Positions 20,852 through 29,045 are shown, numbered from the stretch's first letter. The stretch: 64,000 nt of DNA from Escherichia coli O157:H7 (GCF_013167455.1 NZ_CP038328.1); one strand, 5' to 3'. The notes: a model not told the origin generated them from the letters alone. A program made the numbers and translations.

Positions 20852-21721
20852 TCAAAACAAATCGTTTAGCATAACCCCCACACCGACACGGGTCTGGTTG
20901 AAGTTATAGTCGATGAGCGATTCGCCATAGCCGCTGTAAACCTGAGTATAAAGGCGCACATGTTTGGTGATCGGGTAACTTAAGCCTAACTCCGCGCCGC
21001 CGTAGCCGGTGTTCCAGTTGTACTGTCCTTTCGCACTGAGCACCGCATCACCGAGGTGATAGCCGATTTTAAGCTGGTAGTAACCCATATATTTGGTGAT
21101 ATCCGGGTTATCGTCAGTATTACCCACCACATACCACGGCTTCACTTCTACCAGCCAGTTACCGTTTTCTGCCATCAGGCGAGTATAAAGGCGGTTCCAG
21201 CTGCGGGAGGTCGGGTCTGAACGCCCGTTAGAGTCGTGGTTATACCCCATCTCCACATCGCGCAGCGTCCAACCTGCAAAACGGTAATCGGTGGCAAAAC
21301 CGAGGAACAATTGCGGTTCGTAGTTGGTTTCACGAAACGGTGAAGACTCTTCGCTATTGGACAGTTGCCACCAGGATTTTTGCGTATAAGACGCACCCAA
21401 CACCGAGTTCGGGCCTAAAATCCCACGCCACAGCGGAAATGCCAGGCTCAACTGAAACTTTACTTCATCCTTACGCGCATTTTCCGCCCAGTCGTAACTG
21501 GCAATCGCTTCTTTGTTCAGATCGCTGGTTTGGGTGTAGATGAGGTAGTTGGTGTCATAAGGATAGAGCGTGAACGGATTGTCATGCTCCTGCAGCATAT
21601 TGGCGATAATACTGCCACGCACCGCTGGCGCGTCATGCACCTCTTTCACCGTTGCCTCTTGTGCATATACTGCCATAGGCAACATAAACACCGGCAACAA
21701 CCAGCCCTGCAGAGTCCGCAT
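20852..21721 (-). CDS. pldA: Outer-membrane phospholipase A
   Basis: 289-aa ORF with signal peptide (MRTLQGWLLPVFMLPMAVYAQE); recognised as PldA. Confidence 0.95.
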   Translation of the reverse strand: MRTLQGWLLPVFMLPMAVYAQEATVKEVHDAPAVRGSIIANMLQEHDNPFTLYPYDTNYLIYTQTSDLNKEAIASYDWAENARKDEVKFQLSLAFPLWRGILGPNSVLGASYTQKSWWQLSNSEESSPFRETNYEPQLFLGFATDYRFAGWTLRDVEMGYNHDSNGRSDPTSRSWNRLYTRLMAENGNWLVEVKPWYVVGNTDDNPDITKYMGYYQLKIGYHLGDAVLSAKGQYNWNTGYGGAELGLSYPITKHVRLYTQVYSGYGESLIDYNFNQTRVGVGVMLNDLF

Positions 21722-21885
21722 CGGTCGTGTTCTCCGTAACGAATTATTGATAAGGTGAATGTTTTTCTGCGGGGTATTTTACATACTTAACTCCATTGCC
21801 GTTAGTTATCCCTTCCTAAAGTAGAAACCAACAACAAAGAATCATAAAATCAACATTTCATTAACCAATGAAGTGTAAGGATGAT

Positions 21886-22353
21886 ATGTCTGCCGTACTG
21901 ACCGCTGAACAAGCCCTGAAATTAGTGGGTGAGATGTTTGTTTATCACATGCCATTTAACCGCGCATTGGGGATGGAACTGGAGCGTTACGAAAAAGAGT
22001 TCGCACAGCTGGCCTTTAAAAATCAGCCAATGATGGTGGGCAACTGGGCGCAAAGCATTTTGCACGGCGGGGTCATTGCGTCGGCGCTGGATGTCGCCGC
22101 CGGTCTGGTGTGCGTAGGAAGTACCTTAACCCGCCACGAAACCATCAGTGAAGATGAACTACGCCAGCGGCTATCGCGGATGGGGACCATTGATCTTCGC
22201 GTCGATTATCTGCGCCCAGGCAGAGGCGAGCGTTTTACTGCTACCAGTAGCCTGTTGCGTGCAGGCAATAAAGTCGCCGTCGCCCGCGTTGAATTACACA
22301 ATGAAGAACAGCTTTATATTGCCAGTGCCACCGCCACCTATATGGTAGGTTGA
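21886..22353 (+). CDS. yigI: Hotdog-fold thioesterase YigI
   Basis: Start at internal Met [18 protein letters not shown] (155 aa); position between pldA and rarD. Confidence 0.8.
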
Positions 22354-22404
22354 AGACATAAAAGCAGGTAAACTGCTGTTACCAATTAAAAATGAGTATT
22401 CCCG

Positions 22405-23292
22405 ATGGATGCAAAACAAACGCGGCAGGGCGTATTACTCGCTCTTGCCGCTTATTTTATTTGGGGTATAGCCCCAGCGTACTTCAAGTTGATTTACTAC
22501 GTGCCCGCCGATGAGATCCTGACGCATCGCGTGATCTGGTCGTTTTTCTTTATGGTGGTGCTGATGAGCATTTGCCGCCAGTGGTCCTATTTAAAAACGC
22601 TGATTCAGACGCCACAGAAAATTTTTATGCTGGCAGTCTCTGCCGTGCTGATTGGTGGCAACTGGCTACTGTTTATCTGGGCGGTGAACAATCACCATAT
22701 GCTGGAAGCGAGCCTTGGTTACTTTATTAACCCGCTGGTGAACATTGTGCTGGGGATGATTTTCCTCGGCGAGCGATTCCGCCGGATGCAATGGCTGGCG
22801 GTGATTCTGGCGATATGTGGCGTGTTAGTCCAGCTGTGGACTTTTGGTTCGCTACCTATTATCGCGCTGGGGCTGGCATTTAGTTTTGCCTTCTACGGCC
22901 TGGTGCGCAAGAAGATTGCGGTAGAAGCACAAACCGGCATGTTAATTGAAACCATGTGGCTGCTGCCCGTGGCGGCGATTTACCTGTTTGCTATTGCCGA
23001 CAGCTCAACCAGCCATATGGGGCAAAACCCGATGTCGCTGAATTTACTGCTGATCGCCGCCGGTATTGTCACTACCGTACCGCTGTTGTGTTTTACCGCC
23101 GCTGCCACGCGCCTTCGTCTCTCAACGTTAGGCTTTTTCCAGTACATTGGCCCGACGCTGATGTTCCTGCTGGCTGTGACGTTTTATGGTGAAAAACCGG
23201 GTGCCGATAAGATGGTGACTTTCACCTTTATTTGGGTGGCGCTGGCAATTTTTGTGATGGATGCGATTTATACGCAGCGTAGAAAAAGTTAA
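22405..23292 (+). CDS. rarD: EamA/DMT-family transporter RarD
   Basis: 295-aa polytopic membrane ORF MDAKQTRQGVLLALAAYFIWGIAPAYFKL... recognised as RarD. Confidence 0.9.
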   Translation: MDAKQTRQGVLLALAAYFIWGIAPAYFKLIYYVPADEILTHRVIWSFFFMVVLMSICRQWSYLKTLIQTPQKIFMLAVSAVLIGGNWLLFIWAVNNHHMLEASLGYFINPLVNIVLGMIFLGERFRRMQWLAVILAICGVLVQLWTFGSLPIIALGLAFSFAFYGLVRKKIAVEAQTGMLIETMWLLPVAAIYLFAIADSSTSHMGQNPMSLNLLLIAAGIVTTVPLLCFTAAATRLRLSTLGFFQYIGPTLMFLLAVTFYGEKPGADKMVTFTFIWVALAIFVMDAIYTQRRKS

Positions 23293-23338
23293 GAATTAAC
23301 ATGGGTAGGCCGTTTAAAGAGCCTACCCACTGACTTAT

Positions 23339-23653
23339 TTATCTTTTTTTGAAAAAAATTAAGATAAGAAAAAGAACAATATTTGTTACAGGAAATCCCC
23401 CCAAAACTCCCCAGTACTTACTCCATCCTAGAGACATCGTATATCTACCAAGGATTTGACAAAACCCAAAACTTAACCCTATACCTATACTTCTTAAATT
23501 TAATGTCGTAGTCAGGCTTAAAATAAATAGAACAAGGATGGTAATAGCCCACCACAATAACCATGCCTTAACAAAATCAGATTTTTTGCTGTAAGGTTCT
23601 TTACCCAAGAACAACTGCCAAAAGTTACCATTTCCCATATAGAATCCATTCAC
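23339..23653 (-). CDS. Hypothetical small membrane protein (104 aa)
   Basis: ORF in AT-rich DNA with two clear hydrophobic segments (WLLWWAITILVLFILSL; FPVTNIVLFLILIFF); no family recognised; this is where E. coli K-12 has yigG, but I cannot confirm equivalence. Confidence 0.45.
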   Translation of the reverse strand: MNGFYMGNGNFWQLFLGKEPYSKKSDFVKAWLLWWAITILVLFILSLTTTLNLRSIGIGLSFGFCQILGRYTMSLGWSKYWGVLGGFPVTNIVLFLILIFFKKR

Positions 23654-23853
23654 CCAAGATATTGTTTATAGAATAAAAATACATTCCAATTATATTTAAT
23701 TAAAATATACCCCATCAATAAAAACTTACACACTCTAAATTACTACTGTATAGTTATCAATGCAAAGACTGCTATATTGCATATATATATGCAAACCACA
23801 TAATTCAGGTAATATATATTCAAAACAATTATATATATAAAACAATGTAAAAA

Positions 23854-24240
23854 ATGTTCAAATCATCCATCAGAAATATATTCTACCCATCCAAGCTTGA
23901 GCGTTTATCACGCTTTCAGTTCATAATCTATACATTAACATCATGGTCAATATTAATAACTTTGAATGATATCAACCTGGCTTTGAGTTTTATTCTGGTT
24001 ATTAATAATACCTATGTAAATATCAATATTGGAGCAAAAAGAATAAGAGATACTGGATGTAAGGCAATCTACTTTGTATTGATTTCATTGGGTTTGACAC
24101 TTTTTTCTATTATCTCTGCAGCAATTGAAGGGGTGAGATGTGAGTCATTAAGCGTCCAACTCAACGTGGCATGGATATTATTCACAACAATTATGTTATC
24201 TGCGATTCCCTCTGCTAAAATGTCGCTGTCAGCACACTAA
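23854..24240 (+). CDS. Small inner-membrane protein, DUF805-like (possible yigF/yigG equivalent)
   Basis: 128-aa ORF in AT-rich DNA; motifs LERLSRFQF and KRIRDTG...IYFVL resemble the N-terminal R-rich and RRLHDxxxSxWW signatures of DUF805 proteins as I remember them; tentative. Confidence 0.55.
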   Translation: MFKSSIRNIFYPSKLERLSRFQFIIYTLTSWSILITLNDINLALSFILVINNTYVNINIGAKRIRDTGCKAIYFVLISLGLTLFSIISAAIEGVRCESLSVQLNVAWILFTTIMLSAIPSAKMSLSAH

Positions 24241-24264
24241 CTTACTCACAGCGACATCGTATAG

Positions 24265-24408
24265 TTACAGCCAGTTCTTGCGCTTAAAGTACAGATACGG
24301 TGCCAGGCCCGCGAGGATCATAAAGATAATCGCGCCTGGGTAGCCGAAACTCCACTTCAGTTCTGGCATAAACTCAAAGTTCATGCCATAGCTGGAGGCA
24401 ATCGGCGT
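24265..24408 (-). pseudogene. Orphan duplicate of the corA 3' end (last ~44 codons, including stop)
   Basis: 24265-24384 is near-identical (about 2 mismatches in 120 bp) to 25976-26095, the 3' end of intact corA, and encodes [44 protein letters not shown]; similarity decays over the next ~25 bp. ORF track shows this as part of a 67-aa ORF 24265..24468. Confidence 0.85.
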
Positions 24409-24597
24409 AGGAAAAAGTTTCCTAATCGGTAAATTCAATATTTTGTTATTAACAATGAGCAAGACCAATCATTAACGACGTTCTCTTCAGAGATGTAATG
24501 AAAAAATGTGAAGTGTACTTCTTTTTTAAATATTTTTTTACCCTAGCATTTGTTCTCAAATTGATATTGAGCTTAAATATAACCAAGGAAAATGTAA

Positions 24598-25446
24598 ATG
24601 AATAACACATTACTTCCATCAATTAATATTCCCTGTACACTTTTCGAAACTATTAGTTTATTTGATAATTATTCTGCTGATGATATGCAATATGGTGATA
24701 TGGTAGAACAAGATTTTCTCTCACTCGGCCTAAGCGATATCTCAGCAAAAGTTGATCCTTACAGACTTATTAAATACCATTTCCCTGGCCCAGGTTCTAT
24801 TAATGTTGCTTTTAGTGCCTCAAGTTCCGGAACAAAAATATCACAACGTGAATGCACTGATATTTTATTTGCAGAAATGAAAGAACTAGCAAAAATGTTT
24901 TCCTTTTTTGGACAATATAAAACACTTATCGAAGATCTGATTGAACATTTTAGATATGGAAATGGCAGCAATTTTCATAGCCAACAATTAAATTTATCTT
25001 TTCATGAAAAAATAAATAAATATGGTTATAATAGTCCAATACGAATAATCAAAGAATGTATCGAAAATGGCATTAATTCAACTCCCTCGACAGGATACCA
25101 ACCTCTTATCCTGCAAAGCATTAAAACCAAATTACTTTCATCAAGACTAAATAAATTTAATGACTTCGAGGACAGTTTTAATGGCTTAGGAATCAGTGTT
25201 CATGATATTTCAGCTCAAAAAATATCTCTTTTAAGTTTTCAAAAATACGCTATAGGATGGAGTGCAACAATTCATTTTGTAGCACAGGACCACTTCGGTC
25301 TTGATGTAACTGATATCAAAAACAAGACTTACAGCAAATATAGATTTTTTCGCATATGGTTCTTTTTACAACGGCATAAAGACTTTGCTTTCAAACCTTT
25401 TTTCACCAATTTTAACACTATCGAAAGAATCGAAAATTATCTATGA
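24598..25446 (+). CDS. Hypothetical protein, 282 aa, no export signal, family not recognised (cassette gene A)
   Basis: Long ORF in strongly AT-rich DNA (by eye about 30-35% G+C; not computed), where chance long ORFs are unlikely; AAGGA Shine-Dalgarno about 8 nt upstream of the ATG; stop overlaps the start of the next ORF (ATGA at 25443-25446); no N-terminal hydrophobic segment. Confidence 0.75.
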   Translation: MNNTLLPSINIPCTLFETISLFDNYSADDMQYGDMVEQDFLSLGLSDISAKVDPYRLIKYHFPGPGSINVAFSASSSGTKISQRECTDILFAEMKELAKMFSFFGQYKTLIEDLIEHFRYGNGSNFHSQQLNLSFHEKINKYGYNSPIRIIKECIENGINSTPSTGYQPLILQSIKTKLLSSRLNKFNDFEDSFNGLGISVHDISAQKISLLSFQKYAIGWSATIHFVAQDHFGLDVTDIKNKTYSKYRFFRIWFFLQRHKDFAFKPFFTNFNTIERIENYL

Positions 25447-25934
25447 AAAGCAAACTCCAAAAAATTATATTATGTTTATTTCTTCTATGCTGCATCTATA
25501 ATTTATGGACATTGCGTCCTGTACAGATTTTGTATACATACTCTGATGCTGGCAATTCAGTCTTTCTGGTCGTTGATCATCTGCCATGGACTGACAGCGA
25601 TAAAATAAATTGGTATCTGAAGCATCAGAATGAAATTAAAAATCAACATCCCCTACCAGAAGGTAGTTGGCATACCTGGTATGTCATTGATATCGGTAAT
25701 GGCTTCACTGACTATAAAAAATATATCGAAGGGCCGTATGAAGATCTCTACTGTTTCCCGACAATTAAGAGCAATGATAATTGCATCACGAAAAATTACT
25801 TAATGGTTATTAATGAATACCCTTATCGTAACACTCATATTGGTATTAACGATTTTACTGAGTATCAATTAACACAAGAAAATAAAATAGAGCAAGTTTT
25901 CAATCCGCATAACTTTAAAAAAGACAATTTTTAG
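25443..25934 (+). CDS. Hypothetical exported or membrane-anchored protein, 163 aa (cassette gene B)
   Basis: ATG overlaps the stop of gene A (translational coupling); N-terminus MKSKLQKIILCLFLLCCIYNLW has a basic n-region and about 15-residue hydrophobic core (signal peptide or signal anchor); same low G+C as gene A; family not recognised. Confidence 0.7.
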   Translation: MKSKLQKIILCLFLLCCIYNLWTLRPVQILYTYSDAGNSVFLVVDHLPWTDSDKINWYLKHQNEIKNQHPLPEGSWHTWYVIDIGNGFTDYKKYIEGPYEDLYCFPTIKSNDNCITKNYLMVINEYPYRNTHIGINDFTEYQLTQENKIEQVFNPHNFKKDNF

Positions 25935-25940
25935 AAATAA

Positions 25941-25968
25941 GCCGGATAAAAAAATAGCTTTATCCGGC
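25941..25968 (-). terminator. Hairpin terminator immediately downstream of corA
   Basis: 10-bp inverted repeat gccggataaa / tttatccggc with 8-nt loop; on the minus strand it is followed by a T-rich tract, so it reads as the corA terminator; on the + strand it follows cassette gene B without a T-run. Confidence 0.6.
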
Positions 25969-25975
25969 ACTCATA

Positions 25976-26926
25976 TTACAACCAGTTCTTCCGCTTAAAG
26001 TACAGATACGGTGCCAGGCCCGCGAGGATCATAAAGATAATCGCGCCTGGGTAGCCGAAACTCCACTTCAGTTCTGGCATAAACTCAAAGTTCATCCCGT
26101 AGCTGGAAGCAACCAGCGTTGGCGGCAGGAACACGACGGATACCACCGAGAAAATTTTGATGATGCGGTTCTGCTCGATGTTGATAAAACCCATTGCCGC
26201 CTGCATCAGGAAGTTCACCTTCTGGAACAGGGATTCGTTATGCGGCAGCAGGGATTCGATATCTCGCAGGATTTCACGCGCCTGCTCCAGTTGCCCACCC
26301 GGTAAGCGTGCTTTACGTACCAGGAAGTTGAGCGCGCGCTGGGTATCCATCAGACACAGGCGCACTTTCCAGCCGATATCTTCCAGTTCCGCCAGAGTGG
26401 AGAGCGCCTCGTCGTACTCATCGCCCTGATGCCCTTCCATAATCACCCGGCTCAATTGCTCCAGGTCGCTATAGATATTTTCAATTTCATCTGCCAACTG
26501 TTCGATTTTGGTTTCGAACAGATCCAGCAGCAACTCGTAGGCGTTACCGTCTACCATCGACTGGCTACGGGCACGCATACGATACAGACGAAAAGCGGGC
26601 AGTTCACGCTCACGCAGAGTAAACAGACGACCATCACGGATGGTAAATGCCACAGTGGAGTTACCGGCGTGATCTTCCGCATCTTCAAAGAAGAAGAAGG
26701 AGTGAATATGCAGGCCGTCATCGTCTTCAAAGAAACGTGCCGATGCTTCGATGTCTTCCAGTTCCGGGCGGGTTGCCAGGCTCTGGCCAAGTTCAGATTG
26801 TACGCGCAGTCGCTCGTCGTCGTCCGGTTCGACAAGATCAATCCATACTGCATTTACAAGGGGTTGTGACTCTTCGACTTCCAGCCGGGTCAGTCGGTTA
26901 TTTTCCAGTTGAAATGCGCTCAGCAT
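25976..26926 (-). CDS. corA: Magnesium/cobalt transport protein CorA
   Basis: Recognised CorA sequence ([31 protein letters not shown]... [11 protein letters not shown] ...KRKNWL, 316 aa); start at internal Met of the 321-aa ORF. Confidence 0.95.
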
Positions 26927-27295
26927 GACCGGGACTCCCAATGCTTAAAATATCGGACAGTTCGGTGGGCACACAGAAACAAATTGGGTTTCAGACCATT
27001 AAACAGCCTGACTCAGCGCGACGGGAAAAATTGAGGTCGCTGACAACCGCTAAGGCTATCAGCAAAAAGGGATAGCCTTAGGAGTTGATCCTGGATGACA
27101 GGATAGTGAGCCAGTATCTACTGGGTGTGTCCAAGGCGAATGTCCTCTTAGAGTGATCGTGCGCGCATGTTACGCCAGCAAAATTTTGCCGTCAACACGC
27201 AACAGAACACCACAGAACAATAGTTGAACTTCGCGCTTTTTGGTACTCGTCAAGGTCGCTAACAGGATAAAAAAATCCCACATCCAGGACCTATA

Positions 27296-28060
27296 ATGGC
27301 GCATCGGCTACTCATTGGTAAAGGAATGATCACCTTGAATCTCAAACGGATTTTTCTCGCCCTCACCTTACTTCCCTTGTTTGCTGTTGCCGCTGATGAT
27401 TGCGCACTCTCAGATCCAACGCTGACCGTACAGGCGTATACCGTTAATCCTCAAACAGAGCGGGTGAAAATGTACTGGCAAAAAGCCAATGGCGAAGCGT
27501 GGGGAACTTTACATGCTCTGCTGGCGGATATGAATAGTCAGGGTCAGGTGCAGATGGCGATGAACGGCGGCATCTATGATGAAAGCTATGCGCCGCTCGG
27601 TTTGTACATCGAAAACGGTCAGCAGAAGGTGGCGTTAAATCTCGCTTCAGGTGAAGGGAATTTCTTTATCCGTCCTGGCGGCGTGTTTTATGTCGCGGGA
27701 GATAAAGTCGGCATCGTTCGTCTGGATGCCTTCAAAACCAGTAAAGAGATTCAGTTTGCGGTGCAGTCAGGGCCAATGTTGATGGAAAACAGTGTAATTA
27801 ATCCGCGTATTCATCCCAACGTCGCCTCACGTAAAATTCGTAACGGTGTTGGAATTAATAAACATGGGAATGCCGTGTTTTTGTTGAGCCAGCAGGCGAC
27901 AAATTTTTATGATTTTGCCTGTTATGCCAAAGCGAAACTGAACGTTGAGCAGCTGCTTTATCTTGATGGCACGATTTCACATATGTATATGAAAGGCGGG
28001 GCAATCCCGTGGCAACGCTATCCTTTTGTCACCATGATTTCCGTCGAGCGGAAAGGTTAA
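27296..28060 (+). CDS. yigE: Uncharacterised exported protein YigE
   Basis: 254-aa ORF with N-terminal signal-like segment (LKRIFLALTLLPLFAVAADD); matches E. coli YigE as I remember it; divergent from corA. Confidence 0.85.
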   Translation: MAHRLLIGKGMITLNLKRIFLALTLLPLFAVAADDCALSDPTLTVQAYTVNPQTERVKMYWQKANGEAWGTLHALLADMNSQGQVQMAMNGGIYDESYAPLGLYIENGQQKVALNLASGEGNFFIRPGGVFYVAGDKVGIVRLDAFKTSKEIQFAVQSGPMLMENSVINPRIHPNVASRKIRNGVGINKHGNAVFLLSQQATNFYDFACYAKAKLNVEQLLYLDGTISHMYMKGGAIPWQRYPFVTMISVERKG

Positions 28061-28142
28061 GCATTGTACACTCGAGGAGGCCAGACAAACTGGGGCTGGC
28101 TACACAGCTGGAAAATCATCAGATAAATGAAGGGAAACAAAA

Positions 28143-29045
28143 ATGAAAAAAACGCTCGCAACGTTATTTTTATTAACGTGTCTGGGATCATCATCCGCTT
28201 ATGCGGATAACGCTTTGATTTTACAAACTGATTTTAGCCTGAAAGATGGTGCCGTCTCGGCGATGAAAGGGGTCGCATTCGGTGTTGACCATAATCTTAA
28301 AATATTTGATTTAACACACGAAATTCCACCGTATAACATCTGGGAAGGCGCTTACCGCCTGTATCAGACCGCCAGTTACTGGCCGCAAGGTTCGGTATTT
28401 GTCAGTGTGGTCGATCCGGGCGTAGGCACTGACCGTAAATCGATAGTGCTGAAAACCAAAAACGGTCAATACTTCGTTTCACCGGATAACGGTACGCTCA
28501 CTTTGGTGGCGGAATCGCTGGGTATTGAGAGCGTCCGGGAAATCGACGAAAAAGCTAACCGCCTGAAAGGTTCTGAAAAGTCATATACCTTCCACGGTCG
28601 TGACGTGTATGCCTACACCGGTGCACGTCTGGCTTCCGGGGCGATCACGTTCGAGCAGGTGGGGCCTGAGCTTCCTGCAAAGGTTGTCGAACTTTCTTAT
28701 CAGAAAGCAAAAGCAACAAAAGGTGAAGTGAAGGGCAATATCCCGATTCTCGATATTCAGTACGGCAACGTCTGGAGCAATATCAGCGACGAGTTGCTGA
28801 ATCAGGCGGGGATCAAACTCAACGACACGTTGTGTGTGACCATTTCCGAAGGTTCCCGGCAAAAATACGCAGGGAAAATGCCGTATGTCGCAAGCTTCGG
28901 CGATGTGCCGGAAGGACAGCCGATGGTGTATCTGAACAGCTTATTGAATGTTTCCGTGGCGCTGAATATGGATAATTTCGCGCAGAAACATCAGGTTGCG
29001 TCTGGTGCTGACTGGAATATTGATGTGAAGAAATGTGATAAGTAA
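28143..29045 (+). CDS. Exported SalL/DUF62-family protein (SAM-dependent halogenase / SAM hydroxide adenosyltransferase-like)
   Basis: 300-aa ORF with Sec-type signal peptide MKKTLATLFLLTCLGSSSAYA; mature region aligns by eye with the chlorinase SalL: LILQTDFS~IAFLSDVG, MKGVAFGV~CKGVMYGV, IFDLTHEI~IVDITHDV, YGNVWSNI~FGNVWTNI, SFGDVPEGQPMVYLNS~TFGEVDEGQPLLYLNS; GAAGGGA ribosome-binding site upstream. Confidence 0.8.
   Translation: MKKTLATLFLLTCLGSSSAYADNALILQTDFSLKDGAVSAMKGVAFGVDHNLKIFDLTHEIPPYNIWEGAYRLYQTASYWPQGSVFVSVVDPGVGTDRKSIVLKTKNGQYFVSPDNGTLTLVAESLGIESVREIDEKANRLKGSEKSYTFHGRDVYAYTGARLASGAITFEQVGPELPAKVVELSYQKAKATKGEVKGNIPILDIQYGNVWSNISDELLNQAGIKLNDTLCVTISEGSRQKYAGKMPYVASFGDVPEGQPMVYLNSLLNVSVALNMDNFAQKHQVASGADWNIDVKKCDK

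Follow-up and report, generated by a model that had tools for sequence, protein, structure and literature searches.

A DUF3289/DUF943 gene pair between rarD and corA of Escherichia coli O157:H7 is probably an orphan T6SS effector-immunity cassette

The DNA analysed here (the window) is a stretch of 64,000 nucleotides from the chromosome of Escherichia coli O157:H7 (GCF_013167455.1, NZ_CP038328.1). Its gene order is recQ-pldA-yigI-rarD, an AT-rich islet at positions 23300-25975, and corA-ysgD-yigE-uvrD. The islet holds two genes on the plus strand, gene A (24598-25446, 282 aa, Sakai ECs_4747) and gene B (25443-25934, 163 aa, Sakai ECs_5766), of the DUF3289/TIGR03034 (YPO3983) and DUF943 families, respectively; we predict that they encode a T6SS cargo toxin acting in the periplasm and its cognate immunity protein. 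Over the 2.9 kb around this cassette the sequence is 100% identical to that of the O157:H7 strain CDC#03-98, and positions 30001-55000 match many O157:H7 genomes at 100% identity.

An initial annotation of the window had described two open reading frames of 282 and 163 aa in DNA far richer in AT than its surroundings, and both points were borne out. The GC content is 31.4% in gene A and 32.9% in gene B against 51.6% for the window, and GC3 is 0.23 and 0.34 compared with 0.62 in corA. As had also been noted, gene A is preceded by a good Shine-Dalgarno sequence (AAGGA, 24586-24590, plus strand, 7 nt 5' of the ATG), and the two genes share an ATGA stop/start overlap (25443-25446, plus strand), implying that they are probably translationally coupled.

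Upstream of the cassette lies an AT-rich region (24412-24597, plus strand) that moves with it, such that homology to the B2 strain ATCC 25922 begins exactly at 24412. The promoter of the A-B operon is presumably located in this region; a consensus promoter scan yielded no site count above shuffle expectation, and because it did no better than shuffles we claim no promoter. Downstream, a GC-rich terminator-like hairpin (25941-25968) separates the stop codon of gene B from that of corA, which is convergent with it; the hairpin has an 11-bp stem followed by a T run when scored on the minus strand. The duplicated host-gene end reported in the initial annotation was confirmed as a 147-nt direct repeat: the last 147 nt of corA recur on the minus strand at 24265-24411, with 95% identity to the intact corA 3' end (25976-26122, minus strand). 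RefSeq annotates the upstream copy as a partial CorA pseudogene, and it appears to be the scar on the cassette's left side. Scanned against Rfam, positions 21000-29000 matched no family.

Two further small ORFs occupy the islet, both AT-rich and with multiple predicted transmembrane segments. The first (23339-23653, minus strand) is 104 aa long (99 aa in RefSeq) and is annotated in Sakai as ECs_4748, 'membrane protein'. The second (23854-24240, plus strand, 128 aa) carries no annotation in Sakai or CDC#03-98 and shows a weak NCBIfam match to PRK11371 (E 5.5e-6), far under the cut-off. They sit where K-12 has yigG-yigF, and BLASTP of both against K-12 YigF and YigG found no similarity; thus, as far as BLASTP can detect, they are not simply divergent yigF/yigG alleles. 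Separately, between yigE and uvrD we noted a 300-aa ORF with a signal-like N-terminus (28143-29045, plus strand), named in RefSeq as a 'SAM hydrolase/SAM-dependent halogenase family protein' and mislabelled in Sakai (ECs_4744) as 'acetolactate synthase'.

The cassette had been called undescribed, with neither protein matching any family. This proved incorrect on both counts. Gene A aligns with Pfam DUF3289 (PF11692) over model positions 2-270 of 272 (E 2.1e-84) and with NCBIfam TIGR03034 over positions 1-274 of 274, scoring 439.2 bits where the curated cut-off is 156.45 bits. Gene B aligns with Pfam DUF943 (PF06092) over positions 1-149 of 151 (E 1.7e-26). RefSeq already names both genes as DUF3289/DUF943 family members in every genome sampled, and in addition to the Pfam, NCBIfam and RefSeq entries there are three or more papers and PDB entries.

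Gene A contains no hydrophobic segment (maximum KD19 1.2), in agreement with the earlier statement that it lacks an export signal, and Pfam finds DUF3289 alone, without a PAAR domain, another recognised loading domain or any extra domain. To describe conservation we used a 42-sequence alignment of gene A relatives, with 11 invariant and 26 near-invariant columns listed by gene A's residue. The family signature comprises Q230-D-H-F-G-L-D-x-x-D239, W254, Q258, R259 and P267, and the conserved residues (QDHFGLDxxD, W..LQR, KPF) are intact in gene A. The N-terminal ~80 residues (24598-24837) carry the invariant acidic residues D24, D29 and D34 within a consensus 'DDYxADDMxxGD'. This region, D29 and D34 included, is confined to the TIGR03034 subgroup and is absent from long fused relatives, which keep residues ~83-280 of gene A alone and join them to SH3, peptidoglycan-hydrolase or M23-like modules. 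Residues ~83-280 would therefore define the toxin core, and the nature of the fusions fits a cell-wall theme, while the N-terminal ~80 residues could be a subgroup-specific subdomain for loading or catalysis.

An AlphaFold2 model of gene A, built from the same alignment, reached a pLDDT of 89 and a pTM of 0.85. It gave one strong PDB match, 9jdi_A (BtpeA CTD-BtpiA of Bacteroides fragilis; Foldseek E 1e-11), with which it has in common the signature DHFGLDxxD...FRxWFxLQ...KPF, and a profile search of the PDB with the gene A family returned DUF3289 entries only. The predicted folds of A and B match both chains of this solved T6SS effector-immunity complex.

For gene B, the initial annotation had proposed either a signal peptide or a signal anchor at the N-terminus. 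There is a hydrophobic segment at residues 5-27 (KD19 1.8), modelled by AF2 as a helix spanning residues 2-24, and the N-terminus contains neither a lipobox nor an AXA cleavage site, which argues for the anchor and against a cleaved signal peptide. Beyond the anchor (~2-24) follows a predicted periplasmic, beta-rich domain, and cysteines C104 and C114 are invariant. Gene B thus has the predicted topology of a DUF943 immunity protein, an anchor plus a periplasmic domain, and is encoded directly 3' of the toxin gene.

Both genes are real and under purifying selection. The dN/dS check that had been proposed for coding status, made between the O157 and B2 (ATCC 25922) alleles, returned 0.18 for gene A and 0.21 for gene B. 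In the same comparison dS in gene A (0.43) exceeds that in the flanking core genes (corA 0.09, rarD 0.19), the pattern expected of an effector-immunity locus that has long been polymorphic. As a side observation, between the window and strain 300490 (25443-25934 against L010 3680-4171) gene B differs by seven nonsynonymous changes and one synonymous change, and gene A by three and one; this is a hint of diversifying change in the immunity gene, from counts too small for a test.

The cassette was found in 2648 of the 5426 complete E. coli genomes (49%), a distribution drawn from search counts and sampled rows. It is always chromosomal and essentially single-copy, and alleles across E. coli are between ~89% and 100% identical. 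Throughout O157:H7 gene A is intact, with 100% conservation; in O55:H7 the figure is 99.9%.

Comparison of haplotypes shows how variable the rarD-corA slot is. K-12 has rarD-yigG-yigF-corA; strain 300490 has rarD-yigG-yigF-corA'-A-B-corA; the O157 window has rarD, two unrelated small membrane ORFs, then corA'-A-B-corA; and the B2 strain ATCC 25922 has rarD-A-B-corA without the corA remnant. From 24412 onward, across the cassette and into corA, the window and ATCC 25922 are 92.4% identical; between the O157-type and B2-type alleles the identity is 85% for A and 92% for B. Salmonella enterica subsp. houtenae and arizonae show the B2-like order in this slot, with a gene A that is 66% identical, and neither the B2 nor the Salmonella haplotypes contain the corA remnant. 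The initial annotation had read the AT-richness as a sign of horizontal origin. The AT-richness stands, whereas a recent foreign origin does not: occupation of the same slot in E. coli B2 and in Salmonella, and in 49% of E. coli, points to an old, recombining accessory locus and not to a recent foreign islet. The cassette thus appears to shift between lineages by recombination through corA, with corA' as the likely scar of one such event. The arrangement suggests that it came into yigF-bearing backgrounds together with a segment of corA, by one homologous and one illegitimate crossover. The remnant itself (24265-24411) is 96% identical to the corA end of K-12 and 95% identical to the resident corA end.

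A survey of presence, absence and neighbours across enteric bacteria had been recommended, and it placed the pair in the rarD-corA slot of E. coli and Salmonella, next to valS, with PAAR and in Enterobacter contexts. The homologous pair adjoining valS (L003, about 40-41% identity) has a DUF3289 gene followed by a DUF943 gene and keeps the 4-nt overlap, which is also kept in B2. Elsewhere, PAAR-DUF3289 fusions (34-39% identity to gene A) have DUF943 gene arrays downstream. One Enterobacterales locus (L002 5632-10682) contains two PAAR-DUF3289 genes, four DUF943 genes and a DUF3289 fragment, and another (L015 6499-9319) has two adjacent DUF3289-DUF943 pairs; tandem pairs also occur in Enterobacter. 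Such arrays are typical of effector-immunity diversification with orphan immunity genes.

Members of both families have been studied experimentally. Targeted to the periplasm of E. coli, the DUF3289 domain carried by a Yersinia pseudotuberculosis PAAR protein, which is encoded in a T6SS operon, is toxic and rounds the cells; they are rescued by the neighbouring DUF943 protein, which is periplasmic apart from a TM helix at residues 7-26 (Geller et al. 2024, PMC11148199). In the authors' proposal the cell wall is attacked in the manner of colicin M, and DUF3289/DUF943 should be re-annotated as toxin/immunity (PMC11148199). In Aeromonas jandaei, an orphan DUF3289 protein belongs to the T6SS-dependent secretome (Fridman et al. 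2025, PMC12135965); prey without the effector/immunity pair is killed in a T6SS-dependent manner, and the downstream gene restores protection (PMC12135965). A pan-genome study of Klebsiella found that DUF3289 and DUF943 clusters co-occur with T6SS. DUF3289 is also the C-terminal toxin of PIX-type orphan effectors and occurs beside VgrG in Enterobacter. In the literature we found no paper testing the E. coli allele of A/B and no biochemical demonstration of an enzymatic target for DUF3289.

Taken together, these results lead us to read the cassette as an orphan T6SS effector-immunity pair of the DUF3289/DUF943 family, with a probability of roughly 80%. The basis is family membership, the fold matches, the conserved pairing and overlap, the PAAR-fused relatives, purifying selection and the presence of a T6SS cluster in O157:H7. 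The effector/immunity idea put forward in the initial annotation is thereby strengthened, since the two families have been shown experimentally to act as toxin/immunity pairs, DUF3289 has been shown to be T6SS cargo, and the models match a solved complex. By analogy with these relatives we infer that the O157:H7 allele of gene A would be toxic and that of gene B protective, and likewise the enzymatic target and delivery by T6SS-2.

The following mechanism would account for the pair. Protein A, which lacks an export signal, would be synthesised in the cytoplasm and, where a working T6SS exists, be carried as cargo by the Hcp/VgrG/PAAR spike and fired into a neighbouring Gram-negative cell. There it would act in the periplasm, most likely against cell-wall synthesis; in the published proposal, a colicin-M-like cleavage of the lipid II precursor would cause cells to round up and lyse. 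Protein B would be held in the inner membrane by its N-terminal helix, with a periplasmic domain that would bind and block toxin arriving from sister cells.

A weak fold resemblance was seen between the gene A model and the catalytic domains of colicin M, pectocin M and PaeM. Membership of gene A in the colicin M family itself was rejected: hhalign of the DUF3289 family profile against ColM (its sequence checked against 2xmx) gave a probability of 0.3%, and the ColM catalytic motif DxYDx5HR is absent from gene A. Since no sequence or profile similarity to ColM is detectable, the lipid II target is a published hypothesis and not a demonstrated activity. The DHFGLDxxD motif together with D29/D34 is unlike the ColM catalytic motif, and hence another chemistry or envelope target is possible. 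We consider it rather unlikely that the chemistry or envelope target of this PAAR-less, TIGR03034-type protein differs from the colicin-M model, that the N-terminal subdomain is an unrecognised T6SS loading signal, or that the protein has a role beyond interbacterial attack. Such a role could be indicated by the fact that it is perfectly conserved in O157:H7 although the T6SS there is attenuated.

The secretion system itself is present in O157:H7 genomes: a T6SS-2 cluster lies at aspV and includes VgrG, two Hcp genes and Rhs. However, it carries lesions. tssA is annotated as frameshifted or as a pseudogene in Sakai (L006 13970-15381) and CDC#03-98, and the 5' end of tssM contains a 28-bp tandem repeat (2.3 copies; T6SS cluster L008 32859-37841, NZ_CP022689.1) that matches the degenerative lesion described in PMC12981562. 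The tssM lesion cuts secretion about 8-fold, and EHEC has no detectable antibacterial activity (Sun et al. 2026, PMC12981562). These lesions make delivery of A from O157:H7 uncertain. As the initial annotation had stated for the flanks, no secretion, Rhs or CDI gene lies nearby: the Sakai annotation lists no T6SS, Rhs or CDI gene over roughly 8,000-53,000 of the window, and in the annotated flanks no vgrG, hcp, PAAR or adaptor gene sits beside A/B or is fused to A. This missing linkage does not exclude membership, orphan effectors being an accepted class. T6SS delivery of a gene A product lacking PAAR has its one precedent in A. jandaei, by analogy with which it may occur here.

The attenuated T6SS raises the question of what the pair does in O157:H7 today. 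The effector may now be idle, with selection keeping gene B against the DUF3289 toxins of gut E. coli, Salmonella, Klebsiella and Enterobacter. This concerns current use and not identity, and it partly overlaps with our preferred explanation. The tssA frameshift and tssM insertion favour it, as do the silence of EHEC in antibacterial assays and the fate of the EHEC effector gene etse4, which is broken while its immunity gene is intact (Sun et al. 2026, PMC12981562). With DUF3289 effectors present in half of E. coli and in a number of other enteric bacteria, there are possible sources of incoming toxin, and orphan DUF943 arrays occur elsewhere. Against this, gene A is intact throughout O157:H7 and nearly invariant in O55:H7, unlike etse4, and residual Hcp secretion persists in EHEC (PMC12981562). 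The T6SS lesions are moreover recent, having arisen after acquisition of the stx2 phage, leaving too little time for decay of A to be informative. On balance we regard a purely defensive use as a possible reading that we hold only tentatively.

Neither of the explanations that dispense with the T6SS fared as well. Colicin M is countered by the immunity protein Cmi, which has an N-terminal anchor and a periplasmic domain, the same topology as B; one could therefore imagine that A is released, for instance by lysis, and enters targets like colicin M, with B acting as Cmi. The weak fold resemblance to the M-type bacteriocins and the lack of an adjacent T6SS gene point the same way. We regard this reading as very improbable. 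An anti-phage defence or abortive-infection toxin-antitoxin module, the other option raised in the initial annotation, would suit a small AT-rich cassette of two translationally coupled genes that occupies a variable slot. Scans of the four islet ORFs came back empty, with no match to any of 5027 PADLOC models (E <= 1) and none to PHROGs, so the defence and phage readings were dropped; A and B match the T6SS effector-immunity crystal complex instead. Furthermore, A would be synthesised in the cytoplasm and B anchored in the membrane with its domain in the periplasm. This would keep them apart in the producing cell, which fits immunity to an incoming toxin and not a toxin-antitoxin system. We give this last option next to no credence.

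In summary, the locus between rarD and corA is best explained as an orphan T6SS effector-immunity pair. The discovery value of this assignment is small: RefSeq already has names for the genes, and the literature covers the family, the way toxin and immunity protein work together, and a crystal complex. What the analysis adds is the picture of a long-standing, polymorphic effector-immunity locus in the rarD-corA slot; roughly half of E. coli and certain Salmonella subspecies carry it there, and it may contribute to strain-level competition in the gut. Looking forward, the coexistence in O157:H7 of an intact pair with a degenerating T6SS offers a way to ask whether orphan effector-immunity pairs persist because of immunity or because of attack; here the pair may be kept mainly for the immunity gene.

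Several characterised systems help to place the cassette. The colicin M family (ColM, pectocins M1/M2 and PaeM) consists of lipid II-cleaving bacteriocins that are imported via FhuA/TonB, whereas gene A lacks their receptor-binding or translocation domains and would be delivered by the T6SS. BtpeA-BtpiA of B. fragilis (PDB 9jdi, 9jg8, 9jg9; Li et al. 2025, Cell Host Microbe 33:1901, as cited in PMC13402684) supplies the structural match, at an identity of only 17-21% for A and 10% for B. BtpeA is 608 aa long, has an extended N-terminal region and depends on the adaptor BtapC, unlike the 282-aa gene A, and it has no sequence match to the first ~80 residues of gene A (D29, D34).

Another is the effector of A. 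jandaei DSM 7311 (WP_042032936.1; PLoS Biol, PMC12135965), an orphan DUF3289 protein whose gene lies apart from the T6SS genes and has a small immunity gene directly 3', like A/B. Its immunity protein differs from gene B, however, in being 95 aa long, with a signal peptide and three TM helices, and is not reported as DUF943. A further system is T6EC1/T6IC1 of Y. pseudotuberculosis IP32881 (Mol Syst Biol, PMC11148199), in which the same two Pfam families occur in the same order. T6EC1 forms the C-terminal part of a PAAR protein whose gene belongs to a T6SS operon, whereas gene A stands alone as a protein of 282 aa at an orphan locus. T6IC1 (157 aa) and gene B (163 aa) are similar in size, both having an N-terminal TM anchor and a periplasmic domain. 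By analogy, A and B would share the reading established for T6EC1, that of a toxin that works in the periplasm and is neutralised by the product of the neighbouring gene.
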